This document shows, piece by piece, positions 1,601-41,860 of a DNA stretch of 64,000 nucleotides. The position numbers and the translations under genes are program-made. This DNA comes from Camelus ferus. Lineage: Eukaryota. Each line of letters starts with the position of its first letter. Position 1 is the first letter of the stretch. Where the stretch lies: the NCBI RefSeq assembly GCF_009834535.1, contig NC_045696.1:48982001-49046000 (forward strand). The letters run 5' to 3'. A model generated the notes under the pieces. It was given only the letters and a program-made list of their open reading frames with translations, did not search any database and was not told the origin of the DNA.

Positions 1601-2518
1601 TCACCCTTGACACCTATCTCTCATATCTCAAATTCAGTCTTCCAAAAAGTCTTGCTGGCTCCACCTTTGAAACAGATTCAAAATATACTCTGTTCACTGC
1701 TTCCACTGCTGTCACCCTGATCTGAGCTACCGCCTCTCTCCCCTGGATTCCTGCAATAGCCCTCTAACTGATCTCCCTGTTTTTGCCCTTAAGCCCCTCA
1801 TTCCACTCAACACAGCAGCCAGAATGAACCTTTTAAAATGTAATTCACGTGGTATTGAACCTCTGCTCAGGACCTGCAATGGCTCTGATTTTCTTCAGTG
1901 GAAATGTCAAAGGTGTGCAATGGCCTAAGCCAGGTGCTCTGACGCCAGACTCTTCTACTCTGGCATATTCTCCTCTACCACACTGACTGGACAACAGATA
2001 AAAATGTCTCAGATTCTAGAAAGTGTTCTGAGTTAGAATTAATTGCACTGATTGAATTGTCATTTCTGTGAGCCTCAGTTTCTTCATCTGTAAAACGAGG
2101 AGGTTTAAATAATCTGTAGGGATCTTTCCAGCTCTAACACTTAGAATTTTTACTAACACAATGATTTACTCTGCTGTGTGTAGTGCTAACACTGTATTGA
2201 AGAAGCCCAAAATGAAGTGACTGTTTTGTAATTACTGGGTTGATCTAATCATCACAGGCAGCATTCTAGGTAATTTAATCCCTGAAGTGAATTTTATTCA
2301 GTTTAGATGTCTACATTCAAACAAATTAGGTACTTAGATAACCTCAGCCACTATGTAGGACACCAGTATCTTTAAACAAGCTGCATGTTCTTAACGGGCC
2401 ATCGCTGATCAAGAGGACATATGCATATGTAAGAACACTCACAAGTTATACTTACACGACTAGTATGTATATGTTAGATTTCACATGGAGAAAAAAATGG
2501 CTGAAAATCTTGATTCAG

Positions 2519-6200: not shown

Positions 6201-6433
6201 ATTGAAGGGAATGGGTATCACTTATCAGGAACCCAAGCAAAATTCCAGTCCTGAGAAGTGAAATCATAAAGCGAAAGTCATGAGTGGGGCACCAGAGCTG
6301 GGCCAGGTTGTAAACAATGTATGAGCGGGGTACAGCTAAGTCTTCAGGGGAATAAAGATGGGTAGACTGAGCTGAAGAGCTAGGATGATAAAAGCAGAAG
6401 AAAAAGATAGAGTTAAAAGAAGCCAGAGAGAAG

Positions 6434-6444
6434 CAAGATGGCGG
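6434..6444 (+). promoter_or_regulatory. YY1 motif of the L1 internal promoter
   Basis: CAAGATGGCGG at +9 of the element, the position where mammalian L1s carry the YY1 site. Confidence 0.8.
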
Positions 6445-7752
6445 AGTAGAATGATGCTCGTAGCTCACCGTCTCCCACAAATACACCAAAACTCACATCT
6501 ACGGACCTACTCAGCCAACCAGAGCACCTGCCGAACTCCGACAGAACATCACCCTCTTCGAAAGACAAAGACAACAAAAATCTGGTAAGAGAAAAGGAAA
6601 AAAGAAGAAAAAGCAAAACAGTGCAGGACCGATTCCACAGGGAGGGAGCGACAAAGGAGGACTAGTGCTCGTTCATTGGGTCTCCCCCCTCCAACAGAGA
6701 GGCCAGCAGGATGGAGGGGGAGCCTCCGAGGCTCAGATCTGCCCTGAGCACCCCTTGACCAACAGAACTGAGTTAAACAGGCACAAAGGGTCCCCACGAC
6801 ACCTAGCCCTAGATGCGAGCCAGCAGCTGGGGCCAGGACAGGCCGCCTGAGCCAGGTGGAGGACTGGGGCAGCTGCACTGAGGCAGCCCCGGGGGACTGC
6901 AGGGTGCTGTGCACCATGGCTGGGAGGGGATACAGAGCAGAACCACCTTGGTCCCCATAAATTGCGAAAAAAGAAAAGCAACACGGCTGGTGTGCCCTTG
7001 GTGGAGGGGTGCCATAGCCTTTGTCTCCTCAGAACTGCACCACCATTACTGGCACTTCTCGCGAGAAGAGAGGCAGGGCGCAGCCACAGCTGCCATCTCC
7101 TCCTGTGCACAGCAGCCAGGCGGGGGCAGGGCCAAGCCCTGAGTCCACACACGGGGGCTCAGCAACCTCCTGGGCAGGACTGAGACTTGTTTATAGCCCG
7201 AGGCAGAGAGGATCTTTCTGCCCTGGCACCTCAGAGAACTTGCACCGCCAAGACAAACAAGGAGCTGACATTTGGCACGGAGCAGAGGCGGGGCATTCCA
7301 AGGTCTTCCCAGAGCCCGCCTTTGAAGCACTGACCCAAGGCAGAGCGGGCAGCTGCACAGAACAGCGGAGCAACCGGCTGGGAGAAGGTGGGCAACCACC
7401 AGCCTTCCTGGCAGGAACACAGCACCTGACCACGGTGCTGGGAGGGGGCGTGATCCACCCACCTGCCTCCCCTGAGTGCAGCATCTGCCTGCAGCATCGG
7501 GAGGGGGAGTGACCCACCTGCCCACCAGGTAAGAACTCAGCTCCTGACCCAGTGTTAGGAGGGGGCGCGATCTGCTAGCCCACAGCCACTGGGAGCAGCA
7601 CAGATGAGGGCGCCAACAGAGGGCCTCTGGAAACAGCAAGCTGAGTTCGTGAAACAGAGTGAACAAAAACCTCTCAATAAAATCATTAAGAGCACACTGT
7701 CTCCAGGAGAACTAGATAACTGATACCCCTTAAGCCACAGTGCCAGAGAAAT

Positions 7753-8653
7753 ATGAGAAATATGAAGGAGCAGAGGAACCACTCCCAATTAAAAGATCAA
7801 GAGAAATCCCCTGAAAGCACGATCAAGGAAATAGACATTGATGGCCTACTCGATCAAGATTTCAAAAAAGGAGTGATCAAAGTACTGAAGAAACTAAAAG
7901 AAATCATGTTTAGAGATATAAAATATGTCAAAAATGAAATAGAAGCTATAAAGAAGAACCAAGTAGAATTAGTAAACTCACTTGCTGAGATGAGAGCTGA
8001 CCTAAAGGCTGTGCAAAGCAGGCTAGATAATGCAGAGGAACAAATAAGTGACCTAGAAGACAGGACAACAGAAAGCACCCAATCAGAACAGCTGAGAGGA
8101 AAGCAAATAAAAAACAATGAAAACAATATAAGGGACCTATGGGATAATATAAAGCATGCCAATCTGCACATAACAGGGGGTCCAGAAGGGGAAGAAAAAA
8201 ATAAAGGGAATTGAAAAGGTCTTTGAAGAAATCATGACTGAAAACTTCCCAAACCTAAAGGAATCAGATATCCAAGTACAGGAGGCTCAGAGGGTCCCAA
8301 ACAGGAAGAACCCAAACAGACCCACACCAAGACATATCATAATCAAGATGTCCAGAGTCAAAGATAAAGAAATGATCCTCAAGGCAGCAAGAGAAAAACA
8401 AACAGTGAGTTACAAGGGAACCCCCATAAGGCTCTCAGCTGATTTCTCTACACAAACACTACAGGCCAGAAGGGAGTGGCAAGATATATTCAAAGTCCTG
8501 AATGAAAAAATAATGCAGACTAGGATACTCTATCCAGCAAGGCTATCCTTTAGAATAGAAGGAGAGATAAAGAACTTCACAGACAAGCAAAAACTAAAAG
8601 AGTTTAGCAACACTAAACCCATGCTAAAAGAAATATTAACAGGTCTACTCTAA
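7753..8653 (+). pseudogene. L1 ORF1: L1 ORF1p (RNA-binding chaperone), about 299 aa, with one +1 frameshift near 8206-8208
   Basis: ORFs 7753-8214 and 8234-8653 join into one ORF1p when one G is removed from AAAGGGAATT. Motifs: coiled coil (SRLDNAEEQISDLEDR), LWDNIK, ENFPNL, PRHIIIK, ARREW, YPARLSF, FTDKQKLKEF. Confidence 0.93.
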
Positions 8654-8796
8654 ATAGAAAAGAAGCAGGATGCTACAAACATGAGAAACTCATAACTGGA
8701 GAGGAGATAACTGCCATGAATTACAAAAAGAATAAACACAAAATTGTAAAAGAAGACATCTAAATCGTTAAGAGTGGGAGAGCGAAGCAAGGAAAG

Positions 8797-9165
8797 CCAC
8801 TGTGGAAAATAGTATGGAGATTACTCAAAAGACTATGAATAGACTTGCCCTATCACCCACAAATCCCGCTTCTGGGCATATATCCAGAAGGAACCCTACT
8901 TCAAAATGACACCTGCATCCCAATGTTCATAGCAGTACTATTTACAATAGCCAAGACATGGAAGCAGCCTAGATGTCCATCAGCAGATGACTGAATAAAG
9001 AAGCTGTGGTATATTTATATGATGGAATACTATTCAGCCACAAAAACCGACAACATAACGCCATTTGCAGCAACATGGATGTTCCTGGAGAATGTCATTC
9101 TAAGGGAAGTAAGCCAGAAAGAAAAAGAAAAATACCATATGAGATCACTTATATGAGGAACCTAA
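8797..9165 (+). pseudogene. L1 ORF2: C-terminal remnant of L1 ORF2 (last ~123 codons, three internal stops)
   Basis: Reads PLWKIVWRLLKRL*IDLPYHPQIPLLGIYP ... PMFIAVLFTIAKTWKQPRCPS ... MEYYSATK ... FAATWMFLENVIL. Internal TGA at 8836, 8992 and 9154. Confidence 0.92.
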
Positions 9166-9371
9166 AAACAAAACAAAACAAAACATAAATACAAAACAGA
9201 AACAGACTCATAGACATAGAATACAAACTTGTGGTTGCCAAGGGGGTGGGGGATGGGAAGGGACAGACTGGGATTTTAAAATGCAGAATAGATAAACAAG
9301 ATTATACCGTATAGCACAGGGAAAAATATACAAGATCTTGTGGTAGCTCACAGCAAAAAAAAAATATGGCA

Positions 9372-9372
9372 A

Positions 9373-9416
<44 letters not shown>

Positions 9417-9417
9417 T
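9372..9417. repeat. (TA)18 microsatellite forming a perfect 46-bp palindrome
   Basis: ATGAA-(TA)18-TTCAT inside the L1 3'UTR. Confidence 0.9.
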
Positions 9418-10591
9418 GTATAACTGAAAAAATTGTGCTCTACACTAGAATTTGACACAGCATTGTAAAATAGCTATTACTCAATAAAAAAATGTAAAAA
9501 AAAAAAAAAAAAAAGAAGCCAAACAGAGAAACTACCAAAATAGTGAAAAGCTAAATAACAGTATAGACAATAAATCATGATTCATGACACCAGGGTGGCT
9601 CTTCAGGCCTCCTTCAGTCACTGCCACCACCATCACCACAGAAGTCGCCGTCATAGACTAAGCAAATGAATAGGCACTCATCAGGCAGTGGGGGAAGAAA
9701 ATCAATGTGACTACAGCACAGGGTGAGTGGAGGGCAGTAGCAAAGATAAACCTTCTATAAAGAAGTTAAAAATGAAAGTTAGCACACCACTGGAATAGAC
9801 TTTAATAAAGTTTGCCTCAGCGACAGTGAGACCTAGGTGAGAAACTTTCACTTCACGCCCACTTTTATTTGAATATTCAAGAAGAACATTCACAAAAAAT
9901 TTCATAATCCCATTACATTCTTCACACTAAACTTAAAACAAAAAGATACAAGTCTCCCCAGATGTAGAGAGCGTTAAGTCTGCCTTAATGAGGCAGAGCA
10001 GAGTCTGTCAACTAATGTTGAAATAGAGTGCCTCCCTTCCCCACCCTGCCCCACCAGCCAGGTATGTCAGGAAAACACTGCATTAGATATCTCAGTTCAT
10101 CAATCTAATAAATGAGTTCTCAAATGTCATTTTCCCTCCATATGCAGCAAACATTCCTCTATTATTTAGTTATGCTGTTTTAATTGGGTTAACTCTCAGC
10201 GCACCAGCACAGTTCCATCTGCAAGAGACGCCTATGTCATTTGAAGGAGAGAAAGAAACTGCAAGAGAAACGGGATGACGGTTCAGAATGACATGTGGTA
10301 TATACACTTGTCAGGACGGAAAAGAAGCATGCTACATTCATATCTTTTAATTTGAGATAATAAAATCTGCCAGTAATATGCCTTCTCTTCCATTAAGAGA
10401 AACATTATCCATTTTGAATATCTTTTAAAGCAAAATAAGCATTTTAATTAAATCCTACATACAGGGGATATTCTCCTGGTCTATTTGTCATATGTAACTA
10501 CTGTAATGGAGTTATCGACAGCATTGGAGAAAAGAGCGCAAAATGATACACATAGAGTTTAAACCTGGGTGAAATAACTACAAACTGGCAC

Positions 10592-11164: not shown

Positions 11165-12336
11165 AGAACCTTCTCATGTGCAACAAAAATCTTGAATGAA
11201 CACTTAAAATGAGCATAAATTTAATTATTAATATATTATGTTACTTCAGAAGTGGTTAAGTCAATGGAAAATATTGTTTCAATTGTAAACGAAAAAACTT
11301 AACCATGAAAAGAAATTTGGCCAAGCTCCAAAATGTTGTATTAACTTCTTAAACTTAAACATGTTTTAAATCATTTTCTTCTATTATTTCAAGTATGAAT
11401 CAAGTTTTCCCAGCACTTGGTGGCTTTTCTATACTTGAGCTTAATATATCCACCACTTTCATATGTATAATATTAAGTGTGTATGACCCACATGAAATGA
11501 GGATCAGTCTGTTCAGAAACTACAACTTGACTGCAGATTGCTGACTTCTCACACAGGGACCATGGTTACCTAATCACTCAATTTATGTGATGAATATAGA
11601 CAGCCAAACTGAATAAAATTCACTTCAGGGATTGAATTACCTAGTTGGCTGTCTGCACTGATCAGATTTACTACATAATTATAAAACAGTAATTCCAATT
11701 GGCACTAGCTCAAATATATATACTATATATATATTACCTTGTTCACAAAGAATTACAGAATTTTTATGCTAGGGAGAGCTTAGAGACTAACCCTTTTTTT
11801 TAACAGATGAAGAGCTTGAGGACTCACACTTGCCCAATTCAATTAGTGTGTCTTAATCAGGAGCACAACACATTCTGGACTCTGAACCGCCTCAGTTATC
11901 AGTGTGGTAAATTAGCACGTTAGGCCACTTGGGTTCTAACCTTGAAACTTCTGCTGTCGTGATTTTAGGCTAGATTTTCCCAAACAAGAGGGCGTGCCTG
12001 GGGGAAGACACTGACCCTTTAGGCTGCAGCATGCCTGGGCAGGTCCTGAGGCTGCCTGAGCTCCTGGGCCAGCGACCCAAGCAAGTGTGACTATTCACCC
12101 AAGTGAGCCAAACACTATCATCTTCCATTAGAGCAGTGACATGAAGGGATTGGAAAGAACGTGATCTTTAGTATTCGAGGCAATTAAATCTAATCTACCC
12201 ATACCTCAGACACGTTCCCTGTGAAGTGATGGGCTCGGACTCTACTACTGGCACAAATACTTACCAACAGTTCTTCCATTTATTACATTCCACTGGATTC
12301 TTGGGAGGATACAGTTATGAATAAGACACAGTGCAT

Positions 12337-18709: not shown

Positions 18710-20480
18710 ATTTTATTTACAAACAGTAAAAATTCACTTTTTGATGTACAGTTCTGAGATGTTTTAACGTGTATAGATTCTTCAACCATCCTGCAAAAGA
18801 ATGCAGAGGAGTTCCAGCCCCCAAAAGAGTTCCCTCCGGCTGCCACCTGTGTTCAGACTCCTCACTCCTAAGCCCTGGCAAACCTTGATCTGTTCCCTAT
18901 TCCTTTTTGGGGAGTGGGGGAGCATTTCTAGAAGGCTTTATTAATGGACTCATACAGTATACAACCTTTTGAGTTTGAGTTCTTTGACTTAGCATTATTC
19001 TCTGGAGATTCATCCAAGTTCTGTTATGTATCAATAGTGCGTTCCATTTTATTGGTGATTAGCATTCCATATGTAGATTACCACAGTTTGTTTATATATT
19101 CACCCACTGAGGGACGTCTGTGATGCTTCTTGTTCTAGATGGTCATTAATAAGGTACTATAAACATTTATGTACAGTTTTTCACGTGAACATGAGCTTTC
19201 ATTTCTCTAATATACGTACCTAAAGGTGGGACTGCTGGGTCATATAGTTGAGTGTATGCTTAATTCTCGGAAAAACTGCCAAACTGTTTCCCAGAGTGAC
19301 TGTAACTTTCTGCATTCCTACAGGCAATGTACAAGAGCTGCTTTTGCTTTACATCCCTGTCAACACTGGATATCATCAGTATTTCTTATTTTAGCCAAGC
19401 TAACAGGTATGTAATGCTGTCTCAAGGTGGTTTTAATTTTTATTTCCCTAATGACACAGAGCATATTTTCATGAGCTTACTTGCCAGCTATATATCTTTT
19501 TTGGTGAAGTGCTTGTTTAAACCTTTTTTCCATTTTTTTAATTGGATCTTTTTTAAATTTTTTAATATTGAGACACTTATATATTCTGATAGAAATCCTT
19601 GGCCTGAGATTGATCAGCAAACATTTCCTCCCTGTCTGTGGTTTGTCTTTCTATTCTTTAAACAATGTCATGCATAGAGCAAAAGTTTTTACTTTTGATA
19701 AAGTTCAATTTATCAGTTATTCCTTTAATGTTGTTGTATCTAAGAATTCTTTCCTAATTAAAGGTCAAGAAGATTTTCCCCTATTTTTTTCTTCTAAGTA
19801 TTTTATAGTTTACTTTTTCATTTACAGCCATGAGGCACTTTTAGTTAAATTTTGTTTATGGAGTAAGGTGTAGGAGAAGGTTCATAGCTTTGCATGTCTA
19901 TTTCTAGTCATTCCAGTACTAGTTGTTGATAAGACTGTCCTTTATCCACTGAATTGCTATTATACCTTTGTCAAAACTCAGCCATTTTTGTATAGGTCTA
20001 TTTCTGGATTTTCCCTTCTGTTCCAATGTTCTAAGTATCTGTTCTTTCATTAGTACCACACTGCCTTGACTACTATAGCTTTATAATATGTCTTAAAATT
20101 CAATAGTGTGATTTTTTCAACTCTTTTCTTTTTAAAAATTGTTTAGCTATTCTAATTCCTCAACCTTTCCACATACATATTTATGATCATCTTGTTGATA
20201 TCTACCAAAAAAATAAATCCTGCTGAGATATAGTTTGCAATTGCATTAAATCTATAGATAAATATGGAGACAACTGACATTTTAACTATACTGAGCCTTC
20301 CAATCCACGTAGATATGTTTCTCCATTAATAGCGTCTGTATTTTATCATTTTCAGCATACCAATCCTGTAGATATTCTGTTGTATTTATTCCATAGTATT
20401 TTCATTTTGGAACTACCATAAATATTACTGAATTTTAAAATTTTAATTTCCAATTGTTCATTACTAGTGTATAAAATATA
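18710..20480 (-). mobile_element. Ancient L1M-type LINE-1 3' portion
   Basis: T-rich antisense L1 text: 'ccacagtttgtttatatattcacccactgagggac', 'aaactgccaaactgtttcccagagtgactgta', 'taccacactgccttgactactatagctttata', 'attgcattaaatctatagat'. Confidence 0.9.
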
Positions 20481-33691: not shown

Positions 33692-35043
33692 TTAGTGAGG
33701 CTGCGCTTTGTTTTTGCCCCAAACCTGCAGCAGACCAGGTCTCAGAGCCTTAGCATCACCTCCTGCCTCAGCCTGCTTGGTGCTCTCTCTTCTGGGAGAC
33801 TTCCTCTTTCTAGCCCTTGAGAAGGTCTGGCAGACACAGTTTAAAAAACGACCGAAGCAGAGCGGTGGTGATGCCAAGGATGTTACTGCAGGAGAAGAGG
33901 GTCCGAGCTCCTGGGATACTGAGAGCTCACAGGGCTGGATCTGACATTCCTGATGCATTACACAAGCACTTTTATTTGCCGACTCTGTAATCTGTCCTGC
34001 AAGTAGAAGAAGAAGGCTAAAAGCCCTCAACGCTGACGCACATACTCTGAGCCAGTTCTTTCATGCTCTATGTGGGGCCCGAGGATCCTAGTTTGCTTCT
34101 CAAGCTCCTTACCCCCAACTCCTCCCACTCCAGGTGAAGAGTTGTCATGTTTTCTCCTATGGAAGAGTGGCAAGCCCAGAGTGTTGCCACCCACTGCCCC
34201 ATCCCTACCTCATTGGGACAGTCAGGATCATCTTCCTTGGCACTGAGTAAGGGTCCGCTTTTTATCTACTGCCTCATCTTCTTCAATTTGTGGTGGTACC
34301 GAAGGCGCTGGAAGAATGCTGGGGCAGTGGGTCTGCACCTTCTCCTCCCTCTTGCTCTTTCTCATTCTCCTTTTCCATACGACCTTCCTACGATGTCTGT
34401 GCCTTTTTGGAAGTGGATCGAGCTTTCTCTTCGGAACTGGAGGCATGACAGGATCTTTTGAAACATCACCCACTTGACTCTCAGATGTCCCCTCCAATGG
34501 CTCTGATGATAATTCTGAACTTCTCTTCAGAGGGTCATTCTCCCATGGGTGGAATCCATCCTCTGTATCTTGAGTATCTGGTGATATGTTCAAGTCATCA
34601 GTGATATGATTTGGGATGGAGATTGGAGACTCCCAACCTTTCTCACTGAGGGTTTTTTCCTGATCCACTATGCTGATCCCAGCCAGCTTTGCAGAAACAA
34701 GGAGCTCACAACAAAAGGACCAAGAGTCAAATGCTAAAGAAAGTAGTTGGTTACCTGACTCTGACTCTTTCCAATGATTTACCCTCAGCTACCATAGACA
34801 TGGCAGCTGAACTGATCTCAGATTTCCCCTCTGGACTTATCTAAAGGAGTTCAATGGCCTTAAGAAATGGAGTCCTCAGGCTGTTCTTCCTGGTCTGGGA
34901 GATCTCAGCTTCCCTAGAAGAGGAGAGAAAGTCACTGAAGGAATTGCTCCATGGACAATGGAGTCCCTCCTAGTCACATAAAATCCATGGTTTAATAAGA
35001 TTCAGCCAAACCTAGCATAGATTCCTTGGCAGAAACTTACCAT
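33692..35043 (-). pseudogene. Spliced gene model for an uncharacterised ~260-aa basic/Pro-rich protein, broken by two frameshifts
   Basis: Exon 34686-34209 (aag|CTG ... GAG|gtaggg) and exon 33996-33692 (cttctacttgcag|GAC ... TAA), both with long open frames in unique sequence. In-frame candidate initiator ATG|gtaagt at 35043-35041. A +1 shift near 34252 and a -1 shift near 33975 are needed to join the frames. Confidence 0.6.
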
Positions 35044-39370: not shown

Positions 39371-41209
39371 AATTAAATCATCTCAGGTATAAGATGAGAC
39401 ACACTTACTCGGAACAGGTTAAACAGGGGGCATTCCTAACCACTTATTATGACCAAATGAAGACGTATGGACTCTGAAATGATTATCCACTGGGTTGACT
39501 CCTCCAGCCACGCTGCCTTCCCACCTACATTTTGAACTTTTAGAAGGACATGGCCAGAAGGCACTATGTTGAAATGTGGATACTGGTGACACTGGGTTTG
39601 CCAACAGGTCTTTTCTCTAGGAGCACCTCTGTCTGTACCGCTCCCCCCCCACCCCCAACAACTCTCCTTCCAGTTTCAACCTCAGACTTGTTACAAGCTT
39701 CAGAAAGTAGACATCAAGGTAGCTAATTATTAAAAAGCTAGGAATGTACATATAAAGCAGTCATGAAAGTTTTATTTTTCTAAAGAAAAAAATTGAGCAT
39801 TTTCCTTTTCTTAAGTTCTTGCTCTTTTCTAAAATTTCATCATCTCATTTTAAAACTTTACCCCTCTGGGCTGAAAATCAGCACAGAAAAAGCAATGTGT
39901 GACCTTTGATTTAGCCTAATAAAACAGTAACAAATAACACACTCAGTGGGTGGTTAAATCTGATAATATTTTGTGCTGAATTTTCTGTAGTAATTCAATT
40001 AGAAATCCTGTGGCCAGCCACCAGAAAGCATGCAGATGGCTAAAGTTTTATAGTATTATATATTTAGTCTTAAAATAGCCTATATTAATTTGGTATCTTT
40101 ATTTATTAACCTAAATACTTCAAGTGAGTTTCTCCCAAATATAATTTAGGATAACCATTTATATTTGTGCTGCTTAAAAACTCCAGCTGGCTCACATCAT
40201 TATGGTGCTTAAAATTCCAATTAAAGAGGGAGAAACACTAATCAGAAAGAGAGTGCATTACAAAAGCTGCATGAATATGTCCACCACAATATCACTGTTT
40301 CTTAAAGGTTCTCCGGAACCGATGCATGCTGGGTCTTCTATGTCCTCCTGCAAGCAGCAGGACCCCTGGAAAAGGAATACTGCCACACAAAGCAAGCTGA
40401 AGCCATTCAGGATCACTGAGTCGTTCGGTCACATCTAATCCTGCCAGGGTTCCCAGCCAAAGAGCCAACGATCCTGGGCTGTCTTCATGCCTTCTCTAAT
40501 GACAGCCTTGGAGCATTCCAGAAAACTTTAGCACTTCCTTTTTTTTTTTAACCATAAATTGCACAGAACTCTTCCAGATTCTTAGTCTATAATTTCTCAT
40601 AAAACTCTTTGAGATCCTCTGGTGAAGATAAATGGCAAGAATTATTGGACTTTAAATTGTTATCCTTCAATGTTATATGCACTGGATCATAACTCCATGG
40701 CTTTGGTTCCCTCATAAAACTAAACCACGAAGCCATTCTTTTCATTTCAAGCTTAGCAGCACACAGGCCCAGGGGTGAAGCAATATAAACACTCTTGAGT
40801 AATTTCTCAAAACCAAATCTCTTCTGCAAAAACAGACTTGCAACTCAGTAGTGTATAATCCTCCTCTGAACCTGTGAAGTTTGTAGTCCTCCTGCCACCC
40901 ACGTAAAACAGTGAGAATGACGTTCGTGGGTTAAGGTGGGACAGGCCTGGGAACTGTCTGGAATCACAGAGCTTAGGTTTAGTCCCAGCTCCACTACTCT
41001 GTTGCCCTAGATAATTTACCAAGTTAGATGATTGTTTTGAGGGGAGAAATGTGACACCTCAGGTTCACAGAACTCTTTTTTAACCTCAGGTTCACAGAAT
41101 TAGTTTAATCAAAATTACTGGTTAATGACACTTGTCATCATTGCTCCCCTGCATGGCCTTCTTTTTTACTTACTGCCTTAAGTGTTCATTTTCAACATAC
41201 ATACGCTTA

Positions 41210-41860
41210 GGGATACACTTAAGAAAGAGTTATGCAAAATGTGCACTAGATATATGCATATAAATGTTCATAGAGGAACTATTTACAATATAAAAAGTTT
41301 GGAAAAATCCAAATGCCCATTGTTAGGATAATGTGGTAGACACTCACAATGGAATTGCAAACAAACAAAGAAGCTACAGCGACCTACAACAATATGGAGT
41401 CATTTGATGTTTCTGAGCCTCTGTTTTGCCCTCTTAAATGGCAAATGACAATGATACCACTTACCTTACCCTTTTCTGAGGATTAAGCAGATATTGTATG
41501 TAAAAAATCCTCAGAAAATTACAACTAATAAATGTTGGTTATTTTCCTCCCACATTCTTTACTACTTCTCCAGTTATCCAAGAATAACCTGGAGACATCA
41601 TAGTAAAGAACAAGCAAGCAGAAGACAATCCAGAGGACACAAGTTTGGATTGCACTGCGGGGAAACACACCTCTAATCCTGCAATTATTCTGCATGTGGA
41701 TTCGGATAAGTTAATTAACCTCTCTCAACCTCAGTTTTCTCTCATGTGAAATGGAAACAAAATGAGTACCAATTTAAGGGGGCTTTAATGAGGTAATTCA
41801 AGTGTTTAGCACACTGCCTGATATACCATAAGTATTCACATAATTGATAACTATTATATT
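41210..41860 (+). mobile_element. Old L1 3' fragment (about 41210-41400) followed by two MIR fragments
   Basis: 'atgttcatagaggaactatttacaata...ggaaaaatccaaatgccc', then 'tctgagcctctgttttgccc' and 'aacctctctcaacctcagttttctctcatgtgaaatgg'. Confidence 0.65.

Follow-up and report, generated by a model that had tools for sequence, protein, structure and literature searches.

Known half-L1 elements and related L1 derivatives

HAL1 (half-L1) elements are reportedly treated in Smit 1999 and in Bao and Jurka 2010.

HAL1 is a non-autonomous L1 derivative that encodes ORF1p only and, according to the accessible sections of PMC5753468, has several independent origins in mammals; this agrees with the preliminary description of the present locus, which had stated that such elements arose independently in several mammals, and one is catalogued in the pig. 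HAL1 elements are also described in the accessible portions of PMC5786205, PMC13756887 and PMC4859970, while excerpts of PMC2241872 and PMC3183009 deal with the rat case and with the marmoset and guinea pig families, respectively. The pig element, HAL1_SSc of Repbase, is 3,016 bp long (N=1482 in the table), and its consensus is given in the supplements of PMC6501411. HAL1 is recurrent in mammals, the pig included, and a HAL1-like family in camelids would be a further case of a known element type.

The L1 element described here lies in the window, i.e., the whole 64,000-nucleotide stretch of Camelus ferus DNA that was analysed. Like HAL1, it has an L1 5'UTR and ORF1, lacks EN and RT, carries a poly-A tail and target site duplications (TSDs) and is about 3 kb long; by analogy, it would need borrowed ORF2p if it were mobile in its present form. 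Unlike the HAL1 families, it is known from one locus, its ORF1 is frameshifted and it retains a recognisable ORF2 tail of 122 codons. It shares with pig HAL1_SSc an approximately equal size, a host from the same mammalian order, the combination of 5'UTR, ORF1 and part of the spacer, and an L1-type terminal tail. However, by-eye comparison places the 5'UTR and ORF1 of HAL1_SSc in the pig L1A lineage, whereas the camel element resembles pig L1C/L1D, and the 3' half of HAL1_SSc is AT-rich with no ORF2 remnant visible by eye, whereas the camel element keeps one. Identity with HAL1_SSc was therefore rejected, and because both the 5'UTR/ORF1 lineage and the 3' half differ, the camel element appears to have originated independently of it.

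Other L1 derivatives are also comparable. SpIREs, as presented in the accessible sections of PMC5860796, are likewise two-ended, TSD-flanked L1 copies with a clean internal gap, but what they lack is a GU-AG intron within the 5'UTR or ORF1, whereas the camel gap runs from the spacer into ORF2. Ordinary internally deleted L1s (PMC5872511, in part) similarly keep both ends and the TSD and lose the middle; such copies should decay evenly, whereas the camel element appears uneven. No camelid HAL1 family was found in the literature searched, including the accessible parts of PMC8605555, PMC5203782, PMC4476161 and PMC12127551, with Repbase and Dfam outside its scope; in the available text of one camelid paper (PMC6726744), HAL1 is mentioned only as a 73-bp match to a bat entry.

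Structure of the camel element

The element extends from 6426 to about 9510 as a unit of ~3.1 kb flanked by exact 11-bp target duplications. Its two ends, 5'UTR, ORF1 and 3'UTR are as follows.

6415..6425, + strand: 5' TSD AAAAGAAGCCA, with TT upstream of the duplication, an L1 endonuclease-type TT/AAAA site
6426..7752, + strand: 5'UTR and internal promoter region, 1,327 nt, 58% GC, CpG observed/expected 0.33
6434..6444, + strand: YY1-type motif CAAGATGGCGG, also found at the start of pig L1D1
7396..7572, + strand: two ~60-nt internal 5'UTR repeats (7396-7455 and 7514-7572), 78% alike
7753..8653, + strand: ORF1, about 299 codons, ATG at 7753, stop at 8651-8653, one frameshift near 8195-8212
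9166..9495, + strand: 3'UTR, with (AT)19 at 9376-9413 and AATAAA at 9483
9496..9510, + strand: poly-A tail; the A-run (9496-9514) extends into the TSD
9511..9521, + strand: 3' TSD AAAAGAAGCCA, an exact copy of the repeat at 6415-6425

The motif CAAGATGGCGG at 6434 is one that we take to be a YY1-type site. The first ~70 nt of the element are similar to the opening bases of the pig L1D1 consensus (by-eye comparison; PMC6501411 supplement 1), and because of this resemblance the 5' end is regarded as the true one. The CpG content of the 5'UTR is partly decayed.

The repeat AAAAGAAGCCA is the sole match of at least 8 nt between the two ends of the element, and a match of 11 nt was reached in 0 of ~1,500 random end pairs with the same spacing as the element's TSDs; the reconstructed empty site, ..GAGTT/AAAAGAAGCCA, reads TT/AAAA. 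All of the marks of insertion by the L1 machinery are present, namely an EN-type site, the 11-bp TSD and poly-A; the 3.1-kb unit thus bears the marks of target-primed insertion, and EN and RT are absent from it. The same marks would persist unchanged through a deletion occurring after insertion.

Three L1 ORF1 Pfam domains are found in ORF1 (trimerization, RBD-like and dsRBD-like), which has no in-frame stop and a single frameshift. Its C-terminal half is 84% identical to protein P0122 and about 72% identical to pig ORF1p, and in a search of protein representatives no ORF1p closer than 76% was present among the best 150. The features reported in the preliminary description for this part of the locus are thus borne out: a true 5' end with a YY1 site, a 5'UTR of ~1.3 kb, a near-intact ORF1, and perfect 11-bp TSDs at a TT/AAAA site.

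The internal gap and its junction

Between ORF1 and the 3'UTR, the sequence passes from the spacer directly into the end of ORF2.

8654..8795, + strand: inter-ORF spacer, its first 142 nt; of these, the final ~50 nt align by eye with the pig L1C13 spacer as far as ..GGAAA
8794..8797, + strand: deletion junction, where about one base (A 8795) could belong to either side
8797..9165, + strand: ORF2 tail, last 122 codons and stop, with premature TGA at 8836, 8992 and 9154

An in-frame ATG in the spacer at 8716 was considered as a real protein start and rejected, as its frame stops at codon 16 and has no homologue.

The size of the gap was estimated against pig L1, which stands in for a full-length camel L1. 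In the pig L1C13 spacer, GGAAA is followed by a T, a T-tract and then about 270 more bases before ORF2 (by eye); because this remainder is about 270 bases and ORF2 in the pig spans about 3,800 nt, the missing segment amounts to ~3.7 kb including EN and RT, that is, by the pig proxy, about 270 nt of spacer and about 3,450 nt of ORF2. The deletion took out EN and RT and spared the promoter, ORF1 and the 3' end. A dromedary ORF2 gene model of 854 aa matches the element over 8794-9159 only, in the last 122 codons, and neither the element nor the rest of the window gave any match to EN or RT. Among the 120 hits listed for ORF2, the best named ones come from dromedary (79-84% identity) and all others stay at or below 73%, which supports a camelid as the host. 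The loss of EN and RT that had been proposed is borne out by these alignments, and the spacer of ~140 nt with a jump at about 8793-8796 is recovered with only slight adjustment (142 nt; 8794-8797). As for the last ~123 codons of ORF2, the tail itself is confirmed, but it counts 122 codons, and its three premature stops (codons 14, 66 and 120) had gone unmentioned. Taken as a whole, the element is a genuine camelid L1 with clean boundaries and an internal deletion.

In pig L1C/L1D ORF2, CAG stands directly before the point at which the camel sequence resumes, and dromedary ORF2 has Q there; the two sides of the junction therefore share about one base, A 8795. With only this base common to both sides, no repeat of at least 25 nt reported at the junction and the same TSD at both ends of the element, an assembly collapse or misjoin is hardly credible.

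The AG of that CAG also resembles a splice acceptor, and spliced L1 retrocopies are known in humans from the accessible sections of PMC5860796, so that the element might be read as a SpIRE-like retrocopy of an L1 RNA that had lost an intron, with its donor in the spacer and its acceptor immediately ahead of the PLW codons; such retrocopies might arise at many loci even if no family ever replicated. However, the pig spacer has a T and no following GT after the left break (by eye, with pig as proxy for camel), and a GTAAG-like donor ~9 nt upstream of the left break is retained in the element (by eye, pig spacer). Because the pig proxy offers no donor at the break and the upstream donor was kept, splicing is very improbable and was rejected as the main reading; it also leaves unexplained why, as described below, the remnant appears more decayed than ORF1.

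The position and form of the junction bear on another explanation, which is that a full-length camelid L1 lost 3.7 kb in a one-off event, during insertion or later, and never spread. In one variant, reverse transcription would have come to a halt ~720 nt into the RNA from its 3' end and then resumed in the spacer; in the other, the deletion would have been a genomic one closed by end joining. The overlap of about one base (pig proxy) fits end joining or a template jump, and the right break, ~720 nt from the 3' end, lies near a common endpoint of human L1 reverse transcription, the median 5' break of human L1 being at 5.5 kb of the ~6-kb element in the available part of bioRxiv 2024.08.27.596794. 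According to excerpts of PMC5872511 and PMC5860796, respectively, internal deletions build up in L1 copies and cis preference disfavours RNAs that lack ORF2. A one-off loss predicts even decay of ORF1 and the ORF2 remnant, but the decay observed is unequal, and we regard this explanation as a doubtful, though substantial, possibility.

Apparent excess of decay in the ORF2 remnant over ORF1

Decay was measured as departures of the camel copy at positions where a close reference has the residue found in most of the other L1 proteins. In ORF1, this comparison was restricted to the C-terminal half, with P0122 (84% identical and presumed camelid) as the only close reference and 119 outgroups. In the remnant, it was repeated for each of 21 references from dromedary-named clusters (18 of them named dromedary, 3 others) against 113 outgroups; P0019 and P0068, which are partial or chimeric, were excluded. 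The C-terminal half of ORF1 departs, at the 70% threshold, at 3/93 sites and the remnant at a median of 13/95 (range 9-16 over the 21 references), with a Fisher p of 0.009 one-sided and 0.016 two-sided. The counts are 4/111 vs 13/98 at 50% (p 0.010) and 2/75 vs 8/76 at 85% (p 0.051, two-sided 0.098). A three-way count, with 70 and 60 outgroups, gives 4/148 for ORF1 and a median of 11/122 for the remnant (p 0.023), and significance is lost (p 0.32) when every ambiguous site is counted against ORF1 only.

Stop codons are distributed in the same direction, with 3 in the 122 codons of the remnant vs 0 in the about 299 codons of ORF1. Under uniform neutral decay at 2-6%, this 3-vs-0 pair arises in 0.15-1.1% of simulations; given three stops, the probability that all three land in the remnant is about 0.05. 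The comparison was set up post hoc; the stops are not independent of the change counts, and an intact-looking ORF1 was part of the reason for choosing the element. Taken together, the comparison gives a modest statistical hint that the ORF2 remnant may have decayed more than ORF1, as expected of an ORF1-only lineage that went on replicating after the loss of ORF2. Decay in place is also present, because ORF1 carries a frameshift and the 5'UTR has lost CpG.

A more decayed 3' piece could also be obtained without a family if the element were a chimera made in a single insertion, in which an older or already defective L1 RNA served as the template for the 3' 720 nt before a switch, in the spacer, to a younger L1 RNA; one TSD pair encloses both halves, as such an event would have it. 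This scheme requires a rare event with two templates, and the remnant still has dromedary-type residues (79-84% identity), so that we hold the chimera to be improbable.

Proposed origin and searches for a second copy

With the unequal decay set against a single deletion, we lean towards the view, which we consider somewhat probable, that the element is a copy, now dead, from a HAL1-like lineage that encoded ORF1 only and descended from a camelid L1. In this scheme, a stretch of about 3.7 kb, beginning mid-spacer and ending where the last 122 codons of ORF2 start, would have been lost from an ancestral camelid L1, which retained its promoter, ORF1 and 3' end; its RNA would then have been recopied in trans by the ORF2p of autonomous L1s, by analogy with established L1 biology. 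Meanwhile, ORF1 would have stayed under selection and the useless ORF2 remnant would have drifted, and the present copy would later have decayed in place through the ORF1 frameshift and CpG loss. More specifically, and only tentatively, the element may represent an uncatalogued camelid HAL1 family that arose from one clean deletion in a then-active L1, with the 122-codon ORF2 tail serving as a built-in neutral clock.

Such a lineage would leave the same junction at other, dispersed loci, each with a TSD of its own. In the protein search, whose collections hold little camelid sequence, the junction peptide was matched by no protein, and none of 418 fetched proteins, with little camelid sequence among them, combined ORF1 with the remnant or carried the camel spacer-to-ORF2 join. 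The sole protein aligning across the junction, P0044, was rejected, being read as a different, ORF2-internal deletion at 60% identity. The spacer motif had 0 matches in viral contigs and 15 in metagenome contigs, all short and due to chance, in a set that covers little camelid sequence; an ORF1 search of viral contigs found nothing. A scan of genome contigs confirmed 1 of 264 candidate stretches, which is a 260-bp piece of ORF1 without spacer and not the junction. Words sampled from 8600-8905 (26 in number) occur at a fraction of 0.39-0.54 in 20 of the 22 listed sequencing runs, and this was not counted as evidence. The failure to find a second junction in these limited collections is in keeping with a one-off deletion, but the blanks carry little weight, the collections searched being poor in camelid DNA. 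The preliminary description had left the choice between a one-off internal deletion and a HAL1-like family; the family side of it gains indirect backing from the difference in decay between ORF1 and the remnant, and the searched collections added no second junction to it.

Significance

An origin by one deletion only would make the element an ordinary dead L1. If it belongs to a family, an independent origin of ORF1-only L1 parasites would be added in a poorly annotated lineage. It has been proposed, in the accessible sections of PMC2241872 and PMC5786205, that its own ORF1p helps an RNA to capture ORF2p in trans; in a camelid family, selection on ORF1 could be measured against the drift of the ORF2 remnant within the same copies, which would test this idea, and the time for which ORF1 stayed selected without ORF2 in cis would be directly measurable from the remnant.

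Sequence around the deletion junction

As a result of the deletion, a spacer ATG at 8716 shares its reading frame with the ORF2 remnant (window 8716–9165). Codon 16 of the frame that opens at this ATG is a stop; a homologue search with the joined spacer–ORF2 remnant peptide (window 8716–9165) found none. P0044, an ENA protein whose alignment crosses the junction, is an L1 ORF2 fragment with 60% identity. P0044 appears to carry an internal deletion distinct from that of the element; its right break lies two codons ahead of the same PLW motif as in the element, and this position near PLW may hint at a break-prone spot.

Other features of the window

2197–2319 and 11591–11713: 123-nt inverted pair, 76% complementary, one arm on each side of the element
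18939–19455, minus strand: L1 ORF2 3' fragment, old and decayed
41207–41332, plus strand: L1 ORF2 3' fragment, old and decayed
about 34243–34446, minus strand: coding sequence that aligns with positions 1–68 of Pfam DUF4672 (E 4e-17)

Both arms of the inverted pair are probably copies of the same older repeat. The two ORF2 fragments share 34–45% identity (range for both) with L1 proteins. The stretch with the DUF4672 match is probably a host exon.

The one confirmed locus of the genome-contig scan, L016:1–260, is a mammalian L1 ORF1 fragment. It lies in a Streptococcus mitis assembly, on a contig of 260 bp with low coverage, and most likely represents host contamination.
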